Source of the DNA: Escherichia coli
GTDB taxonomy: Bacteria; Pseudomonadota; Gammaproteobacteria; Enterobacterales; Enterobacteriaceae
Assembly: GCF_009931435.1 (NCBI RefSeq)
Contig: NZ_CP043414.1
Strand: one strand, 5' to 3'
DNA length: 64,000 nucleotides
Position numbers and translations under genes: made by a program. Of the stretch, positions 9,663 to 64,000 are shown in pieces. Every line of letters begins with the position of its first letter. Position 1 is the first letter of the stretch. The notes beneath the pieces are model-generated. The model ran no database searches. It was given only the letters and a program-made list of their open reading frames with translations, and was not told where the DNA came from.

Positions 9663-10712
9663 ATGGCAACAGGCACGCAGCCCGATGCTGGGCAGATCCT
9701 CAACTCACTGATTAACAGTATTTTGTTAATTGATGACAACCTGGCAATCCATTACGCCAACCCCGCCGCGCAACAACTACTCGCCCAAAGCTCCCGCAAA
9801 TTGTTTGGTACGCCGTTACCGGAACTGTTGAGCTACTTCTCATTAAATATCGAGCTGATGCAAGAAAGTCTGGAGGCGGGGCAAGGTTTTACCGATAACG
9901 AAGTGACGCTGGTGATCGACGGTCGCTCGCATATCCTTTCTGTGACGGCCCAGCGTATGCCGGACGGCATGATCCTGCTGGAGATGGCACCGATGGATAA
10001 CCAGCGCCGCTTAAGTCAGGAACAGCTACAGCACGCCCAGCAGGTTGCTGCCCGTGATTTAGTGCGCGGCCTGGCGCATGAGATTAAAAATCCGCTTGGC
10101 GGTTTACGTGGCGCGGCCCAGTTGCTCAGCAAAGCATTACCTGACCCGTCACTGCTGGAATATACCAAAGTGATTATTGAACAGGCGGATCGGTTGCGAA
10201 ATCTGGTCGACCGTCTGTTGGGGCCGCAACTGCCCGGTACGCGCGTTACCGAAAGTATTCACAAAGTGGCTGAACGCGTGGTGACGCTGGTGTCGATGGA
10301 ACTGCCGGACAACGTGCGGTTGATTCGTGATTACGACCCCAGCCTGCCGGAACTGGCGCACGACCCGGATCAAATTGAACAGGTATTGCTGAATATTGTG
10401 CGCAATGCGCTACAGGCACTGGGGCCGGAAGGTGGTGAAATCATTCTGCGTACCCGCACCGCGTTTCAACTGACCTTACACGGCGAGCGCTATCGGCTGG
10501 CGGCGCGGATTGATGTGGAAGATAACGGGCCAGGCATTCCGCCTCATTTGCAGGATACGCTGTTTTACCCGATGGTCAGCGGCCGCGAAGGTGGCACCGG
10601 GCTTGGCTTATCCATCGCCCGTAATTTGATTGATCAGCATTCAGGCAAAATTGAATTTACCAGTTGGCCAGGTCATACCGAGTTCTCGGTTTACCTGCCT
10701 ATCAGGAAATAA
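9663..10712 (+). CDS. glnL: nitrogen regulation sensor histidine kinase NtrB
   Basis: 349 aa; H-box HEIKNPLGG; HATPase motifs. Confidence 0.97.
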
Positions 10713-10723
10713 AGGTGACGTTT

Positions 10724-12133
10724 ATGCAACGAGGGATAGTCTGGGTAGTCGATGACGATAGTTCCATCCGTTGGGTGCTTGAACGTGCGCTCGCTGGAGC
10801 AGGTTTAACCTGTACGACGTTTGAGAACGGCGCGGAAGTGCTGGAGGCGCTGGCGAGCAAAACACCGGATGTACTGCTTTCAGATATCCGTATGCCGGGA
10901 ATGGACGGGCTTGCGCTGCTCAAGCAGATTAAACAGCGCCATCCGATGCTTCCGGTCATCATTATGACCGCACATTCCGATCTGGATGCTGCCGTCAGCG
11001 CCTATCAACAAGGGGCGTTTGATTATCTGCCCAAACCGTTTGATATCGACGAAGCCGTGGCGCTGGTTGAGCGCGCCATCAGCCATTATCAGGAACAGCA
11101 GCAACCGCGTAATGTTCAGCTTAACGGCCCGACGACCGATATCATCGGCGAAGCGCCAGCCATGCAGGACGTGTTCCGGATTATCGGTCGGCTTTCACGT
11201 TCTTCTATTAGCGTGCTGATTAACGGCGAATCCGGCACCGGTAAAGAACTGGTCGCTCATGCCCTGCATCGCCACAGTCCTCGAGCCAAAGCGCCGTTTA
11301 TCGCGCTGAATATGGCGGCTATCCCGAAGGATTTGATCGAATCAGAACTGTTCGGTCACGAGAAAGGCGCGTTTACCGGCGCGAATACCATTCGTCAGGG
11401 GCGTTTTGAACAGGCCGATGGCGGCACGTTATTCCTCGATGAAATTGGCGATATGCCGCTCGATGTACAGACGCGTTTGCTGCGCGTGCTGGCAGACGGT
11501 CAGTTTTATCGCGTTGGCGGCTATGCGCCGGTGAAAGTGGATGTGCGGATTATCGCTGCGACCCATCAGAATCTCGAACAGCGGGTACAGGAAGGCAAGT
11601 TCCGTGAGGATTTGTTCCACCGCCTGAACGTTATCCGCGTTCATCTGCCGCCGCTGCGTGAGCGTCGGGAAGATATTCCCCGTCTGGCACGCCATTTTTT
11701 ACAGGTTGCCGCGCGCGAACTGGGCGTAGAAGCGAAGTTGCTGCATCCGGAAACCGAAGCCGCGCTGACGCGTCTGGCATGGCCGGGTAACGTGCGCCAG
11801 CTGGAAAACACCTGCCGTTGGTTAACGGTGATGGCCGCCGGGCAGGAAGTGTTGATTCAGGATTTGCCTGGCGAACTGTTTGAATCAACGGTTGCGGAGA
11901 GTACTCCGCAAATGCAACCGGACAGTTGGGCAACGCTGTTAGCGCAGTGGGCAGACAGAGCGCTGCGTTCCGGTCATCAAAATTTGCTTTCCGAAGCGCA
12001 GCCTGAGCTTGAGCGGACGTTACTGACGACCGCGTTGCGACATACGCAGGGGCATAAACAGGAAGCTGCGCGGCTACTTGGCTGGGGGCGTAACACCCTG
12101 ACGCGGAAGTTAAAAGAGCTGGGGATGGAGTGA
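10724..12133 (+). CDS. glnG: sigma-54-dependent response regulator NtrC
   Basis: Start chosen at the ATG giving [12 protein letters not shown] (the ORF-track start at 10664 overlaps glnL); receiver domain, [11 protein letters not shown]+ motif, C-terminal HTH. Confidence 0.97.
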
Positions 12134-51933: not shown

Positions 51934-52440
51934 ATGAACACAAAACAGTCTGTTGCTCAACTCGCCGTACCGCACCGCAAGCGCCTTTCATCCACTGTGG
52001 TGGTGGCGCTGTTACTTTGTGTGGTTGCTGGCGCGGTGATAATTAATGCCGCTGATTTTCCAGCAACTGCCATTGAAACGGATCCCGGTGCAAGTGCCTT
52101 CCCTACTTTCTATGCCTGCGCTCTGATTGTGCTCGCTGTCTTACTGGTGATACGCGATCTTTTGCTGGCAAAACCAGTCCCTTGCGCCAACGCACAGGAA
52201 AAACCGGCATTAAGGAAAACGGCAACAGGAATTGCGGCAACCGCGTTTTATATTGTGGCGATGAGCTACTGCGGTTATCTCGTTACTACTCCTGTTTTCC
52301 TCATCGTCATTATGACGTTGATGGGCTACAGGCGATGGGTACTCACTCCGGGTATTGCGCTGCTGTTAACGGCAATCCTCTGGTTGCTGTTTGTCGAAGC
52401 GTTACAGGTGCCATTGCCTGTCGGCACATTTTTCGAATAA
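51934..52440 (+). CDS. tctB: tripartite tricarboxylate transporter small membrane subunit (TctB-like)
   Basis: 168-aa 4-TM protein between tctC-like and tctA-like genes. Confidence 0.7.
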   Translation: MNTKQSVAQLAVPHRKRLSSTVVVALLLCVVAGAVIINAADFPATAIETDPGASAFPTFYACALIVLAVLLVIRDLLLAKPVPCANAQEKPALRKTATGIAATAFYIVAMSYCGYLVTTPVFLIVIMTLMGYRRWVLTPGIALLLTAILWLLFVEALQVPLPVGTFFE

Positions 52441-52452
52441 CAGGGGCCTGCA

Positions 52453-53943
52453 ATGTTTGAAAGTGAACTTTTAACTCAGGGGTTTTCGACATTACTCAGT
52501 AATCCTCAGGCGCTGCTGTTTGCCACGTTTGGAGTGATGCTGGGTATTATGATTGGCGCTCTGCCTGGCCTGACAGCGACCATGGGTGTGGCGATTTTGC
52601 TGCCTTTCACCTACGGCATGGAGCCTGTTTCTGGCTTGTTGATGATTTGCGGTGTCTTTTTTGGTGGTGTGTATGGTGGTTCTATCACCGCAATTTTGCT
52701 CAAAATTCCCGGTACACCTGCCGCCGCTGCCACCGCCATTGACGGTTATGAGTTAACGAAGCAGGGAAAAGCCGGGCTGGCATTAAGTGCCGCCACGTTC
52801 TCTTCTTTTAGCGGTGGAACGCTCAGCATTATCGTATTGATGTTTCTCTCTCCGGTCCTTGCTAGTTGGGCGTTGAAATTTAGTGCCTCGGAGTCCTTCG
52901 CCCTGGCAACCTTCGGACTGAGCATTATTGCCAGTATTTCCGGTGAGTCGCTGATTAAAGGGCTGATCGCCGGGATTGGCGGATTAATGATCGCAACGAT
53001 AGGCCTCGATCCGATGGGCGGTTTTCCACGCTTTACGGGCGGGTTTGTGGAACTGATGAATGTGCCATTTATCCCGGTGATGATTGGTCTGTTTGCTGCT
53101 TCAGAAGCGTTCCGTTCTATGGAACAAAATCAGCATATTCGTCAGAGCGCGAACGTGGCTATCGGCAGTCTGTTACTGCCCTGGCAAACGCTACGCCGCA
53201 TCGCATTAACCATTTTGCGCTCATCAGGATTAGGGGTTTTTATCGGCATGATCCCCGGTGCGGGGGCAGATATTGCAGCTTTTGTTGCCTATAACGAAAC
53301 TCGTCGTTTCAGTAAGACGCCTGAAAACTTTGGTAAGGGTGAGATTAAGGCGGTGGCCTCCTGTGAGGCAGGCGCGAATGGCTGCACCGGTGGCGCATTG
53401 TTACCTATGCTGACGTTGGGGATCCCAGGCGATGCGGTAACTGCCATCATGCTGGGCGCGTTAACGTTACAAGGGATGCAGCCAGGCCCACTGATGTTTA
53501 CCGACCACGGCGATATGGTTTATACGTTATTTGTCGGCATGATCTTCTGTTACTTCATGCTGCTAGTTCTTGGACTGCTCTCTTTGAAAGTCATCGGTAA
53601 CGTGGTGAAAATTCCCGGCAATATTCTCACACCGATGATCCTCGCACTTTGTGTGGTCGGGACTTATGCGTTGAACAATAGCCTGTTTGATGTTGGCATT
53701 ATGCTGATTGCAGGCGTGGTGGGCTATTTCATGCAAAAAGGGGGATATCCGGCATCACCCGTAGTGCTGGCATTGATTATGGGGCCAATGGCGGAAAGTA
53801 ATTTTCGCCGTGCGCTGTCGCTTTCAGGGGGGTCACTCGACTTCCTGTATACCCGACCGATAACCCTGGCATTGCTGACACTGGCAGCCTTTACGCTACT
53901 GACGCCAATAATACGCAAAATTATGCGCTTACGGCGTCAGTAA
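52453..53943 (+). CDS. tctA: tripartite tricarboxylate transporter large permease subunit (TctA-like)
   Basis: 496-aa polytopic membrane protein with duplicated GxPGxxA / IPGxPA-type motifs. Confidence 0.85.
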   Translation: MFESELLTQGFSTLLSNPQALLFATFGVMLGIMIGALPGLTATMGVAILLPFTYGMEPVSGLLMICGVFFGGVYGGSITAILLKIPGTPAAAATAIDGYELTKQGKAGLALSAATFSSFSGGTLSIIVLMFLSPVLASWALKFSASESFALATFGLSIIASISGESLIKGLIAGIGGLMIATIGLDPMGGFPRFTGGFVELMNVPFIPVMIGLFAASEAFRSMEQNQHIRQSANVAIGSLLLPWQTLRRIALTILRSSGLGVFIGMIPGAGADIAAFVAYNETRRFSKTPENFGKGEIKAVASCEAGANGCTGGALLPMLTLGIPGDAVTAIMLGALTLQGMQPGPLMFTDHGDMVYTLFVGMIFCYFMLLVLGLLSLKVIGNVVKIPGNILTPMILALCVVGTYALNNSLFDVGIMLIAGVVGYFMQKGGYPASPVVLALIMGPMAESNFRRALSLSGGSLDFLYTRPITLALLTLAAFTLLTPIIRKIMRLRRQ

Positions 53944-55179: not shown

Positions 55180-55989
55180 ATGGCAACAACACAACAATCT
55201 GGATTTGCACCTGCTGCATCACCTCTCGCTTCGACCATCGTTCAGACCCCGGATGACGCGATTGTAGCAGGCATCACCTCTATCCCTTCACAAGGGGATA
55301 ACATGCCTGCTTACCATGCCAGACCAAAGCAGAGCGATGGCCTACTACCAGTGGTCATTGTAGTGCAGGAAATTTTTGGCGTGCATGAACATATCCGCGA
55401 TATTTGTCGCCGTCTGGCGCTGGAGGGGTATCTGGCTATCGCACCTGAACTTTACTTCCGCGAAGGCGATCCGAATGATTTTGCCGATATCCCTACGCTG
55501 CTTAGCGGTCTGGTAGCAAAAGTGCCTGACTCGCAGGTGCTGGCCGATCTCGATCATGTCGCCAGTTGGGCGTCACGCAACGGCGGCGATGTTCATCGCT
55601 TAATGATCACCGGATTTTGCTGGGGTGGGCGCATCACCTGGCTGTATGCTGCGCATAATCCACAACTGAAAGCAGCGGTGGCATGGTACGGCAAATTAAC
55701 CGGCGATAAGACGCTGAATTCACCGAAACAACCTGTTGATATCGCAACCGATCTTAACGCTCCGGTTCTCGGCTTATATGGCGGCCAGGATAACAGCATT
55801 CCGCAGGAGAGCGTTGAAACCATGCGCCAGGCGCTGCGGGCTGCTAATGCGAAAGCAGAGATTATCGTCTACCCGGATGCCGGGCATGCATTCAACGCCG
55901 ATTATCGCCCGAGCTATCATGCCGAATCTGCGAAAGATGGCTGGCAGCGAATGCTGGAGTGGTTTAAGCAGTATGGTGTTAAAAAGTAA
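55180..55989 (+). CDS. ysgA: dienelactone hydrolase family protein
   Basis: Start chosen at MATTQQSGFAPAAS (269 aa); alpha/beta hydrolase with nucleophile motif ITGFCWGG. Confidence 0.9.
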   Translation: MATTQQSGFAPAASPLASTIVQTPDDAIVAGITSIPSQGDNMPAYHARPKQSDGLLPVVIVVQEIFGVHEHIRDICRRLALEGYLAIAPELYFREGDPNDFADIPTLLSGLVAKVPDSQVLADLDHVASWASRNGGDVHRLMITGFCWGGRITWLYAAHNPQLKAAVAWYGKLTGDKTLNSPKQPVDIATDLNAPVLGLYGGQDNSIPQESVETMRQALRAANAKAEIIVYPDAGHAFNADYRPSYHAESAKDGWQRMLEWFKQYGVKK

Positions 55990-56245
55990 CGCCATAGCCG
56001 CTAAATCTGATGATTAAGCTCACACAATTTCAACGATTTTTTTAATCTCAAAACCATACAGCATCAAAAAATTTGTTGCTGTATGCCACTCTTTGACTCC
56101 CTTCACATTCGTCATCACACCACCTGTTGAATGCAAAAATTTCGTTGCTGTGCGGCAAACTTTTTTCCTGTTTTATGCCGCTTTTCTCCTGAATACTCGC
56201 TCTCAGAACAACTGGATCGTTTAAACATCAGACAGGAGATTTACC

Positions 56246-56914
56246 ATGACGCAATCCATTTTTCAGGCTCAACCCTTTGAATTACCTTTTGATCCGCGCA
56301 CAACTGCACTGGTCATGATCGACATGCAGCGTGACTTTGTCGAAGCAGGGGGCTTCGGTGAGGCACTGGGCAATGATGTTTCACTGGTACGCACGGCTAT
56401 CGCACCATGTACAGAGGTGCTGGCAGCCGCACGTCAAAAAGGAATTATGGTTATTCATACTCGTGAAGGCCATCGTGCAGACTTAAGCGACTGCCCGCCA
56501 GCCAAACTGACGCGCGGCGGAAAAACCTTTATTGGTGAACCAGGACCGATGGGACGCATTCTGGTCAGAGGTGAAGCGGGTCATGACATCATTCCTGAAC
56601 TGTACCCAGTGACAGGCGAACCGGTGATTGATAAGCCCGGTAAAGGCGCTTTTTATCAAACCGACTTACATCTGATTTTGCAAAACCACGGTATCAAGAC
56701 GCTGATAGTTTGTGGTGTAACAACCGAAGTTTGCGTAACCACCACCGTGCGCGAAGCAAATGACCGTGGCTATGAATGCATTATCCCGGAAGATTGTGTC
56801 GGCTCATATTTCCCGGAATTCCAGAAATATGCCCTCGAGATGATCAAAGCACAAGGTGCCATTTTCGGTTGGGTGAGTGATTCCAAAGCCATTATTGCAG
56901 GTCTGGAAGGCTAA
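56246..56914 (+). CDS. isochorismatase-family cysteine hydrolase (RutB/BiuH-like amidohydrolase)
   Basis: 222 aa; D-K-C triad context (ALVMIDMQRDF, DKPGKGAF, VCGVTTEVC) and a C-terminal FGWVSDS block resembling RutB as I recall it. Confidence 0.75.
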   Translation: MTQSIFQAQPFELPFDPRTTALVMIDMQRDFVEAGGFGEALGNDVSLVRTAIAPCTEVLAAARQKGIMVIHTREGHRADLSDCPPAKLTRGGKTFIGEPGPMGRILVRGEAGHDIIPELYPVTGEPVIDKPGKGAFYQTDLHLILQNHGIKTLIVCGVTTEVCVTTTVREANDRGYECIIPEDCVGSYFPEFQKYALEMIKAQGAIFGWVSDSKAIIAGLEG

Positions 56915-56919
56915 CGCCG

Positions 56920-57780
56920 ATGGTACAGGTGACGCTTTGCGCATCATCGTTGGGATATCTTTTCCCGCAAAATGAAACGCAAGATTTACGTCTGCATAGT
57001 GCTTTTAAACATGCGGTAAATCTGTATTCAGAAGCGGGAACATTCATCACTCTGTTGTGTGCGCAAACGTATCTGAATCTCCCTGATGCCGCCAGAGTCA
57101 ACCTGCCTGAGAATTGGGACTGGCGAAGAGAGATTGCCCATTCAGATCCCATTCAGTTAACCCCAGGCTTGTTACAAACACCTCGCTTTTGCGTGGTGCT
57201 TCATAACACAACACTTTGGCAACCGCCATTTGTGGGGGGAATGCTGACACTTGAGGCATTCCCTTTGGTTTTCCAGCACTACCCAACGATGGCATCGCAA
57301 CGGCTTTTATTTTGTCTGGAGCATAACGTTCAAAGCACATTGCACCTGCCGGATAGTCTCACGCACCAGGGATTAGCGATTATGGAACATCCAGATGCAC
57401 TGGAACGCCAGGTGCCACAACTGATCGGCTTTGGTAAAGGCTTAACGCCCGATGGAGATGACTATTTGTTGGGCTATCTGGCAGCGCTCTGGTTATGGCA
57501 ACTCCCTGCAACACTTGCCGATCATCAATACCGGTTGCAGCAGGCAATTGATCAACATGCGCACAACACCACGGATATCAGTCGTCATTATCTGGAGCGT
57601 GCGCTTCAGGGGCATTTTTCAGAACCGATTTGCCAGTTACTCGCACAACTGGTTGGGGGCGCATCGGAAATGACAATCGCATCCTGTGCAGAACAGGTCA
57701 TGCAATTTGGCGCAACGTCAGGAGTAGATTGCCTTGCAGGAATGCTGCATGGCTTTCGAACCCTGAACACCATGAATTGA
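56920..57780 (+). CDS. DUF2877-like protein (YlbF/YahE-like putative carbamoyltransferase subunit)
   Basis: 286 aa, 6 bp after the hydrolase gene; GFGKGLTPDGDDYLLG motif; assignment to DUF2877 is from memory of the LTPxGDD signature and the conserved position next to FdrA-like/DUF1116 genes. Confidence 0.55.
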   Translation: MVQVTLCASSLGYLFPQNETQDLRLHSAFKHAVNLYSEAGTFITLLCAQTYLNLPDAARVNLPENWDWRREIAHSDPIQLTPGLLQTPRFCVVLHNTTLWQPPFVGGMLTLEAFPLVFQHYPTMASQRLLFCLEHNVQSTLHLPDSLTHQGLAIMEHPDALERQVPQLIGFGKGLTPDGDDYLLGYLAALWLWQLPATLADHQYRLQQAIDQHAHNTTDISRHYLERALQGHFSEPICQLLAQLVGGASEMTIASCAEQVMQFGATSGVDCLAGMLHGFRTLNTMN

Positions 57781-57874
57781 TTTCAACCTTTTCTCCCGTA
57801 GCCCATTTATGGCGCTACACGGGGATGCTTTGCCCGAATTTTGCTATCGGGCGGAATAAAACAGGCGTAACAGC

Positions 57875-59434
57875 ATGAAAGTTAAATATAAAGTTTTCAG
57901 CAATCTTTATCAGGACTCGGTTTCTCTGATGCAGATTTCCGCGCAAATCAGTAAGTTGCCCGGTATTCAACAGGCCTCGGTCGTCATGGGAACACCCAAT
58001 AATCTCGAACAATTGCGCGATGCGGGTCTGGGTAACGAAATCAACGCCAGTCCCAATGATTTAGTGATTGCAGTCATGGGTGAAGAAGATATTTGCAATG
58101 AAGCACTGATACTGGCCCAGCAACGTCTGACCAGCAAACCCGATGATGAAACGGATAGTGGCATTAAAACACCGGAAAATGTCAGCCTGGAAATGGCACT
58201 GGAAGCCGACACCGAAGCCAACCTGGCACTCATTTCTGTACCGGGAGACTACGCCGCCGCCGAAGCAATTAAAGCGTTAAACCTCGGAATGAACGTGATG
58301 ATGTTCAGCGATAACGTCAGTATCGGGCAGGAAAAATCCATCAAAACACTTGCCCGAGAACGTCAGCGCATCGTAATGGGACCTGATTGTGGAACCGCCA
58401 TTGTTAACGGCATTCCGTTAGGCTTCGCTAATGTGGTGAAACGCGGAGCAATTGGTGTTATTGGCGCGTCAGGCACCGGGCTACAGGAAGTGACTTGCCG
58501 AATCGACCAGCTCGGAGCGGGTATTTCTCAGGCGTTGGGAACAGGCGGGCATGATCTCAGTGAAGAGATTGGTGGAATATCGATGCTCTTCGCTTTAGAT
58601 GCGCTGGCGCAAGACGATGAAACTCGCGTGATTGTGCTTATTTCAAAACCGCCTTCACCGATCGTTGCCCGGGCTATTCTGGAGCGCGCCGAGGCTTGTG
58701 GAAAACCCGTGGTGGTGAATTTCCTCGGTGCGAATCCGCATGATCTGGCACGTCCCAATATCACCGCTGCCGCCACACTTGCCAGCGCCGCAAATATCGC
58801 CGTGGCAGTACTGAATGATCAGCCACTTCCGACTGTCGAGACCGAGATTTCCTGCGACGATCTCACAATGTTACAAAACGCCTGCCAGCGTCTGCCAGCC
58901 CATCGCCAGGCGATACGCGGTGTTTTCGCCGGAGGAACCTTCTGTTACGAAGCGCAACTTATCTGCCAGCAAAAGGGATTCAGCGCCGCCTCCAATACGC
59001 CAGTTGCGGGTAATCGTACTCTGGCAAATATCTGGCAAAGCAAAGGTCACACGCTGATCGATATGGGCGACGATGATTTCACCCGTGGCAAACCGCATCC
59101 AATGATCGACCCGACTCTGCGCAATCAACGTCTGCTCAACGAACTCAACGACTCACACACTGCCGTCGTGTTATTCGACCTGGTACTTGGTTATGGCGCT
59201 TCCGCTACGCCTGCCAGCGAATTACTGGACCAACTTTCACACATCGACATGAATAACGCACCGTTGCTGATTGCGCACGTTTGCGGAACGGAAGCTGATC
59301 CGCAAATACGCAGTCAGCAGATAAGCGCACTACAAAATGCGGGCATCATCATTGCCAGCAGCAATGCACAGGCGGCGCTATGGGCCAGCGCCGTTGCGCA
59401 GACTCAGTTGCAGAAAAAGGGGCTAAACGCATGA
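57875..59434 (+). CDS. FdrA-like protein (CoA-binding/succinyl-CoA-synthetase-like fold)
   Basis: 519 aa; N-terminus YQDSVSLMQISAQISKLPGIQQASVVMGTPNN aligns with E. coli FdrA; internal NVMMFSDNV, MGPDCGT and VIGASGTG motifs. Confidence 0.8.
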   Translation: MKVKYKVFSNLYQDSVSLMQISAQISKLPGIQQASVVMGTPNNLEQLRDAGLGNEINASPNDLVIAVMGEEDICNEALILAQQRLTSKPDDETDSGIKTPENVSLEMALEADTEANLALISVPGDYAAAEAIKALNLGMNVMMFSDNVSIGQEKSIKTLARERQRIVMGPDCGTAIVNGIPLGFANVVKRGAIGVIGASGTGLQEVTCRIDQLGAGISQALGTGGHDLSEEIGGISMLFALDALAQDDETRVIVLISKPPSPIVARAILERAEACGKPVVVNFLGANPHDLARPNITAAATLASAANIAVAVLNDQPLPTVETEISCDDLTMLQNACQRLPAHRQAIRGVFAGGTFCYEAQLICQQKGFSAASNTPVAGNRTLANIWQSKGHTLIDMGDDDFTRGKPHPMIDPTLRNQRLLNELNDSHTAVVLFDLVLGYGASATPASELLDQLSHIDMNNAPLLIAHVCGTEADPQIRSQQISALQNAGIIIASSNAQAALWASAVAQTQLQKKGLNA

Positions 59435-60855
59435 ATACCTTATTTAATCAGCCTTTGAAGGTCGTGAACGCGGGACTACACAGTTTTGCTGACAATATTC
59501 AACATGCCGGGGGAAGCGCAATTGCACTCAACTGGCAGCCACCAGCACAAGGCGATATTGACGCTGGATTGGATCTGGCATCGTTGCTACGTCATCCACT
59601 AGTAGAAAATGCCAATCAAATCGCCATGACACGTTATCTCGAAGCACAACCCGTGCTGGTGGATGTCATGCTCGCTAAAGAGGCCATTCCAGCAATGGCT
59701 GAACAAAAACGTATTTTGCACTCTGGTCCGCCGATTGCCTGGGAAGAGATGTGTGGTCCGGTAAAAGGGGCGATTATTGGTGCCATGCTGTACGAAGGTT
59801 GGGCCACCAGCCAGCAAGACGCTGAAAACCAGATAAACACAGGCGAAATCGACCTTGCCCCTTGTCATCATTATCACGCGGTTGGACCAATGGCAGGCAT
59901 CATCAGCCCGTCGATGCCGTTATGGGTGGTAGAAAACAAAACCAACGGCCACCGTACTTTTAGCAATTTCAATGAAGGTCTGGGTAAGGTTCTCCGTTTT
60001 GGTGCCAATAACGATGAAGTTCTCAATCGTCTGGCCTGGATGCGCGATGAACTGGCACCGGCAATGAAAGCAGCAATCGCACAACACGGCGAGCTGGAAC
60101 TCAAGCCATTAATGGCGCAGGCGCTGCATATGGGGGATGAAGTTCATAACCGCAATGCTGCCGCTACCGGTTTGCTGATTAAGCGCCTGCTCCCGGCATT
60201 GCTGGCCTGCTCTATTCCACAGGAACATATCCAGCGCGTCGTGGCATTTATCACCAGTAACGATCACTTCTTCCTCAATCTGTCGATGGCTGCCTGTAAA
60301 GCGATGATGGATGCCGCCGCCAATGTACCGTTCAGTTCAATGGTTACGGTGATGGCGCGTAACGGGGTGAATTTTGGTATTCGGCTTTCCGGTACTGGCG
60401 ATCGCTGGTTCCAGGCTCCTGCCAATGCAGTTGAAGGTCTGTTCTTCCCCGGATTTGGCGTCGACGATGCCGCTGCTGACCTGGGTGATAGCGCAATTAC
60501 CGAAACCGCAGGTGTGGGTGGCTTCGCGATGGCGTCATCTCCAGCGATCGTCAAATTTGTGGGAGGCACCCCTGCCGATGCCACCAATAACAGCCGTAGG
60601 ATGCAAGCAATCACCCTCGGTGGTAACCCCGCATTTACACTTCCTGCCCTCAATTTTGCCCCCACCGCAGCAGGGATTGATGCGCGTAAAGTGACCGATC
60701 GCGGCATTTTACCGGTCATCAATACGGGTATCGCCCACAAACAAGCGGGGGTCGGGCAAATTGGTGCCGGGATCACCACTGCGCCGATGGCCTGTTTTGT
60801 CGCCGCTGTACGTGCACTGTCTGAGATCGTCGCAAAGGAGAACCATCATGGTTAA
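59431..60855 (+). CDS. DUF1116-family protein (YlbE/YahG-like)
   Basis: Start at MNTLFNQPLKV, overlapping the FdrA-like stop (ATGA); 474 aa; family call from memory. Confidence 0.7.
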   Translation: MNTLFNQPLKVVNAGLHSFADNIQHAGGSAIALNWQPPAQGDIDAGLDLASLLRHPLVENANQIAMTRYLEAQPVLVDVMLAKEAIPAMAEQKRILHSGPPIAWEEMCGPVKGAIIGAMLYEGWATSQQDAENQINTGEIDLAPCHHYHAVGPMAGIISPSMPLWVVENKTNGHRTFSNFNEGLGKVLRFGANNDEVLNRLAWMRDELAPAMKAAIAQHGELELKPLMAQALHMGDEVHNRNAAATGLLIKRLLPALLACSIPQEHIQRVVAFITSNDHFFLNLSMAACKAMMDAAANVPFSSMVTVMARNGVNFGIRLSGTGDRWFQAPANAVEGLFFPGFGVDDAAADLGDSAITETAGVGGFAMASSPAIVKFVGGTPADATNNSRRMQAITLGGNPAFTLPALNFAPTAAGIDARKVTDRGILPVINTGIAHKQAGVGQIGAGITTAPMACFVAAVRALSEIVAKENHHG

Positions 60856-61804
60856 GCCACTGGCTGTTGTCGCAGTTGGCGGCAATGCGCTCATTCAGGA
60901 CGAGCAACGCAATAGTATTCCCGATCAATATGTTGCAGTGATGGAAAGCGTGCAGCATATCGTTGATATGGTTGAAGCCGGATGGGACCTGGTGCTTACC
61001 CACGGTAATGGCCCGCAGGTGGGCTTTATTCTGCGCCGCTCTGAACTCGCCAGTAACGAAGTTTCTCCGGTTCCACTTGATTACGCCGTGGGTGATACAC
61101 AAGGTGCAATTGGCTACATGTTCCAGAAAGCGCTGCATAACGAATTGGCTCGCCGTGGCATAAACAAACCGGTAATTGCGCTGGTGACACAAACGCGAGT
61201 CTGCCCACATGACGATGCTTTCACCAGCCCCAGTAAACCGATTGGCGCGTTTCTCGATGAAGCAACGGCCCTACAACGCCAACAGCAACTCGGCTGGACG
61301 CTGATGGAGGACGCCGGGCGTGGTTGGCGGCGTACAGTTCCCTCTCCTGCGCCACTGGAAATTATTGAGCACGACACCATCGCTCACCTGGTGCGCCAGG
61401 GATATCTGGTTATTGCCTGCGGCGGTGGCGGTATTCCGGTGGTGCGAGACGGACAACAACTGAAAGGTGTGGAAGCCGTGATCGATAAAGATCTGGCCTC
61501 CGCGCTGCTCGCCAGTCAGTTAGGCGCAGATCTGCTGGTGATCCCCACCGGTGTAGAAAAAGTGGCGATTAACTTTGGTACACCACAACAACAGTGGCTC
61601 GACGCTATCAGCGTTGCCGAAGCGCAAACGCTGTTACGGGAAGGTCAGTTTGGTGTCGGCAGTATGCAGCCCAAAGTGGAAGCCATTGTTGATTTCATCA
61701 ATGCCAGCCAACAACAAGGCAAACAGGCCAGCGGCCTGATTACTTCACCGCAAACCATAAAAGCAGCCCTTTCGCATCAGAGCGGCACATGGATAACCCT
61801 TTAA
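60848..61804 (+). CDS. carbamate kinase
   Basis: 318 aa; VVAVGGNAL and THGNGPQVG amino-acid-kinase motifs; 8-bp overlap with the upstream gene. Confidence 0.85.
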   Translation: MVKPLAVVAVGGNALIQDEQRNSIPDQYVAVMESVQHIVDMVEAGWDLVLTHGNGPQVGFILRRSELASNEVSPVPLDYAVGDTQGAIGYMFQKALHNELARRGINKPVIALVTQTRVCPHDDAFTSPSKPIGAFLDEATALQRQQQLGWTLMEDAGRGWRRTVPSPAPLEIIEHDTIAHLVRQGYLVIACGGGGIPVVRDGQQLKGVEAVIDKDLASALLASQLGADLLVIPTGVEKVAINFGTPQQQWLDAISVAEAQTLLREGQFGVGSMQPKVEAIVDFINASQQQGKQASGLITSPQTIKAALSHQSGTWITL

Positions 61805-61820
61805 TTCTCTGGAGAACTCA

Positions 61821-62210
61821 ATGACTACAACACTTTTAGCCGTTAACGGAACGCTGATGCGTGGCCTGGAACTCAACCCAAATATGCAAAAAGCGGGCGG
61901 CATTTTTGTCCGTGAAGACCGAACTGACGCCCATTACAGGTTGTGGAGTATTAACGATCGTCATCCGGGAATGATTCGCGTGAATGAAGGAGGAACACAC
62001 GTCGACGTAGAAATTTGGCAATTACCACTGACCAGTTTTGCCGCTCTGTTAATGAGCGAACCCGCTGGGCTGGCAATTGGCAAAATCAAACTTGCCGATG
62101 GTAGCGAAGTGCTGGGCGTACTGGCAGAAAACTGGCTGACCGAAGGCCAACGGGAAATTACAGAACTGGGTAGCTGGCGCAAATACACCGGGCATTTTCA
62201 TACTGTGTAA
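61821..62210 (+). CDS. small cytoplasmic protein of unknown function (possibly GGCT/AIG2-like or allophanate-hydrolase C-terminal-domain-like)
   Basis: 129 aa, no TM segment; NGTLMRG near the N-terminus weakly resembles the YGSL(x)RG motif of gamma-glutamyl cyclotransferase-like folds. Confidence 0.45.
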   Translation: MTTTLLAVNGTLMRGLELNPNMQKAGGIFVREDRTDAHYRLWSINDRHPGMIRVNEGGTHVDVEIWQLPLTSFAALLMSEPAGLAIGKIKLADGSEVLGVLAENWLTEGQREITELGSWRKYTGHFHTV

Positions 62211-62235
62211 CGCGCATTTTTAAAGGGAACATACT

Positions 62236-63459
62236 ATGCGTAAAAAAGAAGAGAATCTGAATACAGCATCAGGATTGCGTATTGCCATGATTTTACTGGG
62301 TATTGCCGTCACACCTGTGCTGTTGTCATCCTCAAGCCTCGGCAATCAACTTTCCAGCGGCAGTTTAATTAGCGTCGTATTGTTAGGCGGCGTCATTCTG
62401 ACCTTACTTTCAGCCATCACCATTAGCGTGGGAGAAAAAGCCCGCCTGCCAACGTATGGCATTGTGAAATATTCGTTTGGCGAAAAAGGGGCCATCGCCA
62501 TTAACATTTTGATGGCGATAAGTCTGTTCGGCTGGATTGCCGTTACCGCCAATATGTTTGGTCATTCGGTACATGACTTACTGGCTCAACATGGACTGGA
62601 AGTTCCACTAGCACTGTTAGTGGCTGCTGGCTGTGTCATTTTTGTCGCCTCTACAGCATTTGGTTTTGCCGTTCTGGGAAAAATTGCCCAGGTTGCCGTG
62701 CCGGTTATCGCGCTGGTGCTGTGTTACATCCTCTATGTGGCAACCCATACCGAAGTGGCAGCACCAGCGGTGATTGTGGAGATGAATACGGGTGTCGCTG
62801 TTTCCACCGTTGTTGGCACCATTATTGTGCTGGTTGCCACACTGCCTGATTTCGGTAGTTTTGTGCATAACCGCAAACATGCGCTGATTGCCGCAGGCGT
62901 GACGTTTCTGGTTGCCTACCCTCTGCTCTACTGGGCGGGAGCAACGCCGAGCGCCATTAGTGGTCAGGGATCTTTACTGGGTGCGATGGCGGTATTCGGT
63001 GCGGTTCTGCCCGCGGCGCTGTTGTTGATTTTCGCCTGCGTCACCGGTAACGCGGGCAATATGTTCCAGGGCACGCTGGTGGTTTCCACACTGCTTACCC
63101 ACTTTCCCAAATGGCAGATTACCGTGGCGCTGGGTATCCTTTCCGCCATCGTAGGCAGTCTGGATATTATGGCGTGGTTTATTCCGTTTCTGCTGTTCCT
63201 GGGTATCGCCACGCCACCCGTTGCCGGAATTTATATCGCTGACTTTTTCCTTTATCGCCGTAATGGCTATCAAGAGTCAGTGTTAGCCCAGGAGTCACAG
63301 ATCAAAGTGCTGACATTCGCAGCATGGATCATAGGTGCAGCGGTTGGCTTTATGACCGTAAAAGGCTTATTCACCCTGACGACAATCCCTTCGGTAGACT
63401 CGATTCTGGTGGCATGTATCGCGTATGCGATTCTCAGTCGGGCAAGTCAACGCCGCTAA
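62236..63459 (+). CDS. NCS1-family nucleobase permease (CodB-like)
   Basis: 407-aa polytopic protein; C-terminal ATPPVAGIYIADFFLYRRNG resembles CodB AIPPVGGVIIADYLMNRR. Confidence 0.8.
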   Translation: MRKKEENLNTASGLRIAMILLGIAVTPVLLSSSSLGNQLSSGSLISVVLLGGVILTLLSAITISVGEKARLPTYGIVKYSFGEKGAIAINILMAISLFGWIAVTANMFGHSVHDLLAQHGLEVPLALLVAAGCVIFVASTAFGFAVLGKIAQVAVPVIALVLCYILYVATHTEVAAPAVIVEMNTGVAVSTVVGTIIVLVATLPDFGSFVHNRKHALIAAGVTFLVAYPLLYWAGATPSAISGQGSLLGAMAVFGAVLPAALLLIFACVTGNAGNMFQGTLVVSTLLTHFPKWQITVALGILSAIVGSLDIMAWFIPFLLFLGIATPPVAGIYIADFFLYRRNGYQESVLAQESQIKVLTFAAWIIGAAVGFMTVKGLFTLTTIPSVDSILVACIAYAILSRASQRR

Positions 63460-63536
63460 TTCCTGGGTATACTCAGGCAATGATTACGGCTGAATCTGGA
63501 GAGATTCAGCCACTTTACCACTGACCAGGGAGCCTT

Positions 63537-64000
63537 ATGTTCATCTCAGACGAAACGCTTCGTGTTATTCATCTGGTCGCCAGACACCAGAGCATTACCA
63601 CCGCAGCCGAACAGTTAAATAAAGTCCCTTCCGCCATCAGTTACACCATCAAGAAAGTGGAAGAGAGCCTGGGCGTTGAACTGTTCATTCGTAAGGGACG
63701 CTATATTGAATTATCTCCGGCGGGGAGTTACTTCATCGAACATAGCAAAACTATTCTGGGCGACCTGGAAGCATTAAAGCGCAACACAGTGCTGATTCAC
63801 GATGGTATTGAACGTGAACTGACAATTGCGGTGAACAATATTATTCCTGGTGATTTGCTGGTGGCATTTATTCGAGATTTTGAACGGCAATTCACATCAA
63901 CAACACTGACGGTAGATCTTGAGGTATACAACGGCTGCTGGGATGCGCTGTACAGTAAGCGTGCTGATCTGGTCTACGGTGCTCCTCATGCAGTGCCAAG
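63537..64000 (+). CDS. LysR-family transcriptional regulator, 5' part (continues beyond window)
   Basis: N-terminal HTH (LRVIHLVARHQSITTAAEQLNKVPSAISYTIKKVEESLGVELF); not MetR by sequence. Confidence 0.8.
   Translation, partial: MFISDETLRVIHLVARHQSITTAAEQLNKVPSAISYTIKKVEESLGVELFIRKGRYIELSPAGSYFIEHSKTILGDLEALKRNTVLIHDGIERELTIAVNNIIPGDLLVAFIRDFERQFTSTTLTVDLEVYNGCWDALYSKRADLVYGAPHAVP

Follow-up and report, generated by a model that had tools for sequence, protein, structure and literature searches.

An eight-gene block between ysgA and metE of Escherichia coli combines a triuret hydrolase-type enzyme with an AllFGH-type gene set and a carbamate kinase: a candidate module for urea-oligomer catabolism

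An eight-gene block at the ysgA-metE site

The window analysed here is a stretch of 64,000 nucleotides of Escherichia coli DNA (contig NZ_CP043414.1 of assembly GCF_009931435.1), and the subject of this work is the block of eight genes, g1 to g8, that occupies it from position 56246 to its end, with all genes on the + strand as read from the open reading frame list and the raw sequence. In our reading, to which we assign a probability of about 0.5, the block is a single catabolic module for an acyclic ureide of the urea-oligomer type, with triuret (carbonyldiurea) as the best candidate. The genes are as follows:

g1, 56246-56914, + strand, 222 aa: isochorismatase-like cysteine amidohydrolase of the TrtA (triuret hydrolase) type
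g2, 56920-57780, + strand, 286 aa: AllH/YahE family (formerly DUF2877), putative small carbamoyltransferase subunit
g3, 57875-59434, + strand, 519 aa: AllF/FdrA-family subunit, succinyl-CoA-synthetase-alpha-like
g4, 59431-60855, + strand, 474 aa: AllG/YlbE-family subunit (formerly DUF1116), its start overlapping the g3 stop (ATGA)
g5, 60848-61804, + strand, 318 aa: carbamate kinase, with an 8-bp overlap with g4
g6, 61821-62210, + strand, 129 aa: stand-alone C-terminal domain of allophanate hydrolase with a GGCT-like fold, without an amidase domain
g7, 62236-63459, + strand, 407 aa: NCS1-family permease, CodB-like but not a CodB orthologue
g8, 63537-64000, + strand: LysR-type regulator of the PunR/AllS subgroup, of which the N-terminal 154 codons, starting with the ATG at 63537, lie in the window

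The last gene is truncated by the window end and encodes a protein of 298 aa in related genomes, where the RefSeq annotation calls the same eight genes. The spacings from g1 to g8 are, in order, 5, 94, -4, -8, 16, 25 and 77 bp, in exact agreement with the first-pass annotation of this DNA, which had described eight co-directional genes with gaps of 94 bp or less and two overlaps. The location that it had given, between ysgA and metE, is likewise borne out by related genomes, in which the block is flanked by udp and ysgA on one side and by metE on the other. In K-12 the metE-ysgA interval spans only 39 bp, whereas carriers have approximately 8.5 kb in place of about 50 bp that include a terminator-like hairpin.

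A hydrolase of the TrtA type

The first gene had been labelled RutB-like, and this label has to be given up, as g1 is only distantly related to RutB and falls, by both scores and residues, in the branch formed by the biuret hydrolase BiuH and the triuret hydrolase TrtA. Indeed, against structures in the PDB g1 scores 269 bits with TrtA (6XIX), 239 with BiuH (6AZO) and 234 with a further biuret hydrolase, compared with 106 for RutB, and its pairwise identities amount to 58% with Herbaspirillum TrtA and 54% with Rhizobium BiuH. The best NCBIfam match is the BiuH model (NF050097), although its 279.6 bits remain below the cut-off of 370, while the RutB model (TIGR03614) reaches 113.4 bits (1.2e-32) against a cut-off of 377.95. 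In addition, no rut genes occur near g1 in the window or in the context of related genomes. Placement in the TrtA/BiuH branch shifts the likely substrate from pyrimidines or ureidoacrylate to urea oligomers resembling triuret or biuret.

The catalytic triad (D24, K129 and C162 in TrtA) and the residues that bind the substrate (E72, K132 and Q202 in TrtA) are common to TrtA and BiuH (PMC7948467). The two enzymes are distinguished by six consensus differences, BiuH having Y, Y, S, D, T and V, in this order, where TrtA has F35, N41, A134, E160, Y187 and I205 (Tassoulas et al., PMC7948467). In g1 the triad is D26/K130/C163, the binding residues are E74, K133 and Q203, and TrtA has the same GVTTEVC motif; all six discriminating residues are of the TrtA type (F37, N43, A135, E161, Y188 and I206) and the BiuH-specific residues are absent. 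The same 13-residue signature is present in all 80 g1 orthologues from other species, which are 67-98% identical; F37, N43, E161 and I206, when tabulated across these 80 proteins, are invariant, and Y188 lies within the conserved SYFP loop of each. By comparison, two BiuH-type paralogues found in the same loci carry the BiuH signature, with Y, Y, D and V in place of these tabulated F, N, E and I residues. In a neighbour-joining tree g1 belongs to the TrtA-type half, in which Herbaspirillum TrtA branches first, and the hydrolases associated with HFGK genes (relatives of g2 to g5), g1 included, form a large clade that is sister to the TrtA-type enzymes associated with BiuH. By all sequence criteria tested g1 is TrtA-like, and it likely has the same substrate as TrtA, though it belongs to a separate subclade.

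These data also bear on a biuret route, in which g1 would convert biuret to allophanate and ammonia and the AllFGH-like complex would then split allophanate into carbamoyl phosphate and carbamate. Such a route would agree with BiuH being the best NCBIfam match of g1, with the identity to the Rhizobium enzyme, with the AH_C domain of g6, which suggests an involvement of allophanate, and with the existence of a generalist BiuH that acts on both biuret and triuret (PMC7948467). However, the score of g1 stays below the BiuH cut-off and none of the six discriminating residues is of the BiuH type. In addition, the activity of TrtA on biuret is about 10^4-fold lower than on triuret, and single changes towards the BiuH residues damaged TrtA and created no biuret activity (PMC7948467). 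All in all, biuret as the starting compound appears quite unlikely.

An AllFGH-type gene set followed by a carbamate kinase

The next four genes had been described as DUF2877-like, FdrA-like, DUF1116 and carbamate kinase, and Pfam and NCBIfam matches agree with each of these calls. In particular, g2 matches Pfam AllH (PF11392; 1.8e-27, residues 168-278) and shares 25% of its residues with YahE and, over 110 aa, 33% with AllH. The g3 product scores 495 bits with the NCBIfam FdrA subfamily model, above its cut-off of 433, and is 42% identical to YahF and 41% to AllF, which are 38% identical to each other. The g4 product matches Pfam AllG (PF06545; 7e-99), with 48% identity to AllG and 46% to YahG, and g5 exceeds the cut-offs of both TIGR00746 (arcC; 362.3 versus 358.25 bits) and PRK12352 (373.5 versus 266), with 48% identity to YahI and 38% to AllK. 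Thus, all three transcarbamylase subunit families (FdrA/AllF, AllG and AllH) are present in the block.

AllFGH has been purified and catalyses the reversible reaction of oxalurate and phosphate to carbamoyl phosphate and oxamate, with AllK as the catabolic carbamate kinase (PMC11326118, PMC9843812). The comparison with AllFGH and YahEFG that the first-pass annotation had suggested yields identities of 25-48%; g2 to g4 are about as similar to the All as to the Yah proteins and do not qualify as orthologues of the E. coli AllF, AllG and AllH. No allantoin (all) genes adjoin the block in the context of related genomes. As judged from these comparisons, the F, G, H and K proteins of the block are a third paralogous set, which forms its own orthogroup and has the gene order of the yah cluster. 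A core of 101 positions is at least 97% conserved over the g3 orthologues, AllF and YahF taken together, and this common core fits a shared type of reaction. Orthologues from other phyla are 42-78% identical for g3 and 52-87% for g4, while g2 is the least conserved member of the block and is absent from some loci, for instance in Mycobacterium.

AllH is a reported subunit of the E. coli oxamic transcarbamylase (OXTCase), and some of the related loci have no room for an AllH-like gene. Indeed, the hydrolase gene is directly followed by an AllF-like gene in Mycobacterium/Mycolicibacterium (L065, L068, L070, L071, L074 and L078) and in L012, L037, L038, L042 and L047. AllH is either dispensable in this subfamily or encoded elsewhere in these genomes.

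A stand-alone AH_C domain and a permease

The sixth gene, previously given as a 129-aa unknown, can now be identified as a stand-alone AH_C domain whose structure is already solved. Indeed, g6 matches Pfam AH_C with 3e-41 (and, weakly, GGACT with 0.002), is identical at 128 of 129 positions to PDB entry 5C5Z, and aligns with the C-terminal domains of 4GYR, 4ISS and 5I8I; the name under which 5C5Z was deposited, 'Glutamyl-tRNA amidotransferase', is in our view a misnomer. The match to the NCBIfam allophanate hydrolase model covers only its last ~125 residues (model positions ~440-595), and neither g6 nor any other gene of the block provides an amidase domain, so that the N-terminal part of an allophanate hydrolase (AH) is absent. 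The stand-alone family, strongly conserved across phyla, has invariant residues of its own (N9, T11, R14, E32, H48, E80 and K88) and an invariant Leu12 (N-G-T-L), where six full-length AH C-domains have an invariant His (G-A-H motif). The AH_C identity of g6 suggests that an N-carboxy-ureide, for instance carboxybiuret or allophanate, occurs as an intermediate.

The seventh gene had been called a CodB-like permease, of which the membership in NCS1 holds (1.6e-15 with the NCS1 model) and the equivalence to CodB does not, as the cytosine permease model PRK11017 gives 146.1 bits against a cut-off of 326. Together with g1, this bears on a Rut-type salvage of pyrimidine nitrogen, in which a RutB-like hydrolase and a CodB-like permease would act on a product of ring opening. 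This reading, put forward in PMC12928451 and in part by the first-pass annotation, can appeal to the distant similarity of g1 to RutB (1.2e-32) and of g7 to CodB. The scores speak against it, since g1 reaches 113 bits against the RutB cut-off of 378 and far more with TrtA and BiuH, and g7 remains below the CodB cut-off; moreover, neither RutA nor another ring-opening enzyme is encoded in the block or in related loci. On scores and gene context a RutB/pyrimidine function was rejected for the block, and we consider it extremely improbable.

Other transporters take the place of g7 elsewhere. In about 20 loci a polytopic membrane protein of ~530 aa, encoded directly after TrtA-type genes, stands where the NCS1 permease would be, with hosts that include Chloroflexi, marine Alphaproteobacteria and Vibrio tapetis among others (for example L075:8100-9695 and 9779-11365, and L044:10666-12258). 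This protein matches no Pfam or NCBIfam family and is unrelated to g7; it probably represents a transporter family, as yet uncharacterised, that handles the same substrate. In Rahnella and relatives (L020, L024, L025 and L028; for instance L024:2660-9060) a GntR regulator and a complete UrtABCDE set lie directly upstream of the block, with UrtA scoring 597 bits, above its cut-off, and UrtABCDE also adjoins the TrtA-type gene in L069. The adjacency of this urea-type ABC transporter hints at a urea-like substrate.

Linkage of the hydrolase to the gene set across species

A scan with g1 of one genome per GTDB species gave 80 loci, for which the neighbouring gene sets were counted by tblastn. The loci come from Enterobacterales, Vibrionaceae, Shewanella, Aeromonas, Avibacterium, Burkholderiaceae, Neisseriales, Dyella and Pseudovibrio, and also from marine Alphaproteobacteria, Mycobacterium/Mycolicibacterium, Chloroflexi and a metagenome-assembled genome (MAG) of Desulfotomaculum (Firmicutes). 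The counts beside the g1 orthologue are as follows:

AllF-like and AllG-like genes: 71/80 loci
AllF-like, AllG-like and carbamate kinase genes: 64/80 loci
AllF-like, AllG-like, carbamate kinase and AH_C domain genes: 60/80 loci
NCS1 permease gene, counted alone: 49/80 loci

The nine loci without F and G genes include two very short contigs. The usual order is hydrolase-H-F-G-K-AH_C-permease, with the LysR gene at either end. A BiuH-type paralogue is present in only two of the 80 loci (L069 and L077), both of which lack F, G and K genes, and the HFGK genes thus appear to replace BiuH, with an AllFGH-type set and a carbamate kinase standing in for the usual biuret and allophanate hydrolases. In two loci from marine alphaproteobacterial MAGs (L066:3947-9681 and L073) the neighbours of the hydrolase-permease-H-F-G-K set are a full-length allophanate hydrolase (823 bits) and a pair of additional amidase-signature enzymes, whose AtzE-like scores are below the cut-offs. 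By their gene content these loci combine the hydrolytic route with the putative phosphorolytic one, and the presence of the full-length enzyme beside the hydrolase and HFGK genes fits allophanate as a product.

That the linkage persists across phyla while the transporters and regulators vary is an argument for a single pathway and against two adjacent ones. According to the opposite view, a biuret or triuret hydrolase would lie next to an unrelated AllFGHK set that degrades oxalurate, which is how the co-location of biuH and allFGHK in MAGs of nitrifiers was read by its authors (PMC12625717) and which would agree with the AllFGH and AllK families having been characterised for oxalurate only. 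We find this arrangement very unlikely, because the linkage and order are kept in 71/80 species across phyla without allantoin genes, the F/G orthogroup is distinct from AllF and AllG, the product of g1 would be a dead end without BiuH or AtzF, and the eight genes transfer as one unit on plasmids. Gene content, families, the TrtA-type signature, the linkage across phyla and the distinctness from AllFGHK and YahEFGI are established directly.

A putative route from a urea oligomer to ATP

From these observations we infer what the substrate may be, how carboxybiuret or allophanate would be phosphorolysed, which part g6 would play and how the genes may be regulated. In the proposed scheme, the NCS1 permease g7 would import the ureide, from which g1 would remove a terminal amide nitrogen as ammonia to give an N-carboxy-ureide; from triuret this would be carboxybiuret, H2N-CO-NH-CO-NH-COO-. 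Carboxybiuret is equivalent to oxalurate (H2N-CO-NH-CO-COO-) with an extra NH before the carboxylate. It is because of this closeness that an AllFGH-type phosphorolysis is proposed, in which the g2-g4 complex would split off the terminal carbamoyl group, converting carboxybiuret and phosphate to carbamoyl phosphate and allophanate, and possibly act again on allophanate to yield a second carbamoyl phosphate and carbamate. Carbamoyl phosphate and ADP would then be converted by g5 to ATP and carbamate, which would decay to NH3 and CO2, while g6 may bind, decarboxylate, stabilise or channel the N-carboxy intermediate, and the PunR/AllS-like LysR protein g8 would switch the genes on. On balance, a urease-negative bacterium would obtain nitrogen and ATP from a urea oligomer, bypassing biuret and urea.

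Two further considerations fit this scheme. Carboxybiuret turns into biuret by spontaneous decarboxylation with a half-life of ~20 min (PMC7948467), and E. coli was described as urease-negative by the authors of the work on OXTCase (PMC11326118, PMC9843812); in a host of this kind, with neither BiuH nor the amidase of allophanate hydrolase, biuret and urea would be dead ends. Moreover, most clusters contain either an AH_C domain or a complete allophanate hydrolase, in line with a product that resembles allophanate. The general logic of the first-pass annotation, with import, amide hydrolysis, carbamoyl transfer and ATP formation, is supported by the family calls, apart from the RutB type of the hydrolase. 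Taken by parts, we are rather confident that the block catabolises a ureide through carbamoyl phosphate to ATP, and g1 probably acts before the transcarbamylase on the same carbon skeleton; that triuret is the physiological substrate falls somewhat short of even odds, and the full stepwise phosphorolytic scheme, which leans on analogy, is tentative and may well be wrong in one step or another.

Several points weigh against the scheme. In the searched literature no phosphorolysis of either carboxybiuret or allophanate is reported, and the step follows by analogy with oxalurate only; the same literature, with thin coverage of subscription journals, contains annotation-level mentions of the eight genes and no experimental work on them. 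Triuret is poorly soluble and its abundance in gut and urine is uncertain, and NCS1 permeases usually carry ring compounds. As g6 lacks the His of the AH type, its role cannot be read from allophanate hydrolase. The minimal machinery is ambiguous, given that AllH is lacking in some loci (with the order T-F-G-K-C in Mycobacterium) and AH_C in the Chloroflexi loci. Finally, g1 forms a subclade of its own and shares no more than 58% identity with the characterised TrtA, so that a different, related ureide amide is possible.

This last point leads to another explanation, in which g1 would deamidate a different ureide to oxalurate or to another N-acyl-urea acid, followed by AllFGH-like phosphorolysis; examples of substrates are oxaluramide, formyl- or acetyl-urea derivatives, or an oxidation product of uric acid or of a pyrimidine. 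Besides the subclade of g1, the trace activity of TrtA on formylurea (PMC7948467), the PunR/AllS-like regulator, which points to purine-related ureides, and the NCS1-type transporter would be in line with an acyl-urea amide. Nevertheless, the first- and second-shell residues of g1 are identical to those of TrtA, and the AH_C domain or full allophanate hydrolase in most clusters suggests a product that resembles allophanate and not oxamate. An acyl-urea amide is thus an unlikely substrate when set against triuret or a similar urea oligomer, albeit the least unlikely of the alternatives considered here.

The upstream region and the regulator

The call of a LysR regulator stands, and g8 can be placed closest to PunR and AllS: its full-length orthologue (L001:13538-14434) scores 287 bits with the PunR model and 214 with the AllS model, both below the cut-offs. 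The 256-bp region before g1 and the gap between g7 and g8 contain the following elements:

dyad-end box 1, 56059-56081, + strand: CAGCA-N13-TGCTG, read directly from the sequence
dyad-end box 2, 56130-56150, + strand: AATGCAAAAATTTCGTTGCTG, related to box 1
third element, 56190-56198, + strand: TGAATACTC, with TACTC invariant and the rest nearly so
TATACT element, 63471-63476: in the g7-g8 gap
hairpin, 63488-63511, + strand: 10-bp stem with no U-run after it, in the g7-g8 gap

When the E. coli, plasmid, Citrobacter, Buttiauxella and Enterobacter copies are aligned, the two boxes prove to be conserved for the most part, and the core of the third element does not vary. It is plausible that the boxes and the TGAATACTC element are candidate operator sites for the LysR-type regulator g8 and a -10 region, respectively. 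A sigma-54 promoter of the kind found upstream of rut genes was looked for and not found: no match occurs in 56000-56245, and the count over the whole window is at chance level. Guanidine riboswitches are linked to allophanate hydrolase genes; no riboswitch of this or another type and no other known RNA in Rfam reached the gathering score upstream of g1. A simple scan for sigma-70 promoters and terminators gave no more matches than shuffled sequence.

In the gap between g7 and g8, the 86 nt from 63455 to 63540 fold with -28.9 kcal/mol (z = -3.0 versus shuffles), and the hairpin may be a transcript-end or stabilising element. The presence of this hairpin and of the TATACT element in the 77-bp gap suggests that g8 may have its own promoter and be transcribed separately.

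Distribution and history of the block

The survey of presence and absence proposed at the outset was carried out on 5426 complete E. coli genomes, 1554 of which (~29%) contain the complete block, at 1501 chromosomal and 127 plasmid places. PLSDB contains 82 plasmids with the block (E. coli, 78; Klebsiella, 4), each of them predicted to be conjugative. Many plasmid carriers come from chickens, and they include the ColV-type plasmid pAPEC-O2-ColV (NC_007675.1) of avian pathogenic E. coli (APEC). The plasmid allele shows 93.7-94.7% identity. For instance, the IncF plasmid pMTY17668_IncF of a urine isolate carries a 93.7%-identical block among remnants of insertion sequences (IS), beside eitABCD (L002:12015-20193). 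The same plasmid also has a yahB/yahD/yahE/yahF/yahG-like set (L002:27171-31766), and thus two AllFGH-type paralogue sets.

On the chromosome, the block corresponds to APECO1_2632-2639, part of the tkt1 island, which spans 16 kb and separates metE from ysgA (Li et al. 2012, PMC3349570). This island was found in 80.6% of phylogroup B2 uropathogenic E. coli (UPEC) and 94.1% of B2 neonatal meningitis E. coli (NMEC) (PMC3349570), and it was discussed again in 2026 as GR 29, with a reading in terms of pyrimidines and carbamate (PMC12928451). The genome nearest to the window, with 99.6% identity, has the short form of ~8.5 kb, in which metE directly follows g8.

The first-pass annotation had seen in the block an accessory insertion. 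It is indeed absent from K-12, and the region had already been published; a recent insertion into E. coli was rejected, because the same site, between udp-ysgA and metE, is filled in Citrobacter and Buttiauxella and the junctions are clean, with no integrase, IS element, or direct or flanking repeats at those of the chromosomal block. In these two genera protein identities to the block are 74-91% for g1 and g3-g7 and 44-59% for g2. The shared site and the clean junctions are better explained by an old locus with lineage-specific loss, for example in K-12.

The last ~240 bp of ysgA (55751-55989; L001:5751-5988) are only 89.9% identical to K-12, with a C-terminus …GVKK* instead of …GGKKSL*, while metE beyond the block is 99% identical to K-12. 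The left junction, at the 3' end of ysgA, may mark the edge of an old recombination event.

A second accessory islet lies nearby, between rmuC and udp (51934-53943 and upstream to ~48500; L086:1505-6944), where K-12 has udp directly beside rmuC. It encodes an IclR regulator, a 2-dehydro-3-deoxygalactonokinase, an aldolase and a TctC/TctB/TctA tripartite tricarboxylate transporter, whose tctA is interrupted by IS150 in one strain (L001). An rmuC-udp islet of ~5 kb with 6 open reading frames of unknown functions was mentioned by Li et al. 2012 (PMC3349570).

Comparison with known systems

As the first-pass annotation had supposed, no characterised pathway with exactly this gene set turned up in the searched literature, and several systems share parts of it. 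The closest in expected chemistry is AllFGH with AllK of the anaerobic allantoin pathway of K-12, which, like the block, comprises the FdrA/AllF, AllG and AllH families followed by a carbamate kinase, with conserved core residues; by analogy, both would phosphorolyse an N-carbamoyl amide to carbamoyl phosphate and then form ATP. However, the proteins of the block are only 41/48/33/38% identical to AllF/G/H/K, the order is H-F-G-K instead of F-G-H-K, and the block has no allantoin context and adds a TrtA-type hydrolase, an AH_C protein, and a permease and regulator of its own. Its substrate probably differs from oxalurate. The cluster YahE-YahF-YahG-YahI of K-12, itself uncharacterised, has the same H-F-G-K order, with identities of 25/42/46/48%, and contains YahD (ankyrin) and YahJ (a metal-dependent amidohydrolase) instead of the TrtA-type hydrolase, AH_C and NCS1 permease. 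If our reading is true, the block would add to the AllFGH/YahEFG enzyme group a third member with a substrate of its own.

The pathway TrtA-BiuH-AtzF of Herbaspirillum sp. BH-1 and Rhizobium (PMC7948467) begins with the same type of enzyme, with identical catalytic, binding and specificity residues. In the block, by contrast, BiuH and the amidase of allophanate hydrolase are replaced by the AllFGH-type complex, the carbamate kinase and the lone AH C-domain, and the predicted outcome is a gain of ATP, as opposed to pure hydrolysis. An AllFGH-type enzyme that acts on the product of a TrtA-type hydrolase has not been proposed in the searched literature. A phosphorolytic route for urea oligomers that has so far not been described, in which carbamoyl units are taken stepwise, from carboxybiuret and then from allophanate, as carbamoyl phosphate, is a possibility that we advance with reserve. 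If it is true, up to two ATP and four NH3 could be obtained per triuret without urease, biuret hydrolase or allophanate hydrolase, and a known TrtA-type first step would be joined to a known energy-conserving step in an undescribed pathway.

The co-location of biuH with allFGHK, in some cases with codB, has also been reported in MAGs of ammonia-oxidising archaea and comammox bacteria (PMC12625717, 2025); the likeness to the block is by description, not by sequence. There, from MAGs only, the clusters were read as separate biuret and oxalurate pathways (PMC12625717), for which our proposal offers an explanation as a single pathway. In addition, it opens the AllH/AllG/AllF paralogues and the stand-alone AH_C family (5C5Z) to direct functional tests with few compounds.

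Finally, the tkt1 island, or GR 29, contains the same eight genes at the same metE/ysgA site (PMC3349570, PMC12928451). The nearest relatives of the window have the short form, without the module of tkt1, a phosphotransferase system (PTS) and RpiR; the window itself ends inside g8. In the papers on the island tkt1 was studied or annotations were listed, and the function of the eight genes was not addressed (PMC3349570, PMC12928451). Triuret is a product of the oxidation of uric acid by peroxynitrite and is present in human urine (as cited in PMC7948467). If our reading is true, B2 extraintestinal pathogenic E. coli (ExPEC) and plasmid-bearing APEC could use a host oxidation product for nitrogen and energy in urine or in birds that excrete uric acid. 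The hypothesis thus concerns a widespread ExPEC- and APEC-associated block and three poorly understood protein families, and it provides a concrete candidate substrate for genes annotated only as 'hypothetical', 'yahEFG-like' or 'RutB-like'. Collectively, the region, its location and its annotations are already published, while a pathway that joins a TrtA-type hydrolase to an AllFGH-type set, and the substrate predicted from it, are a proposal made from known enzyme families.

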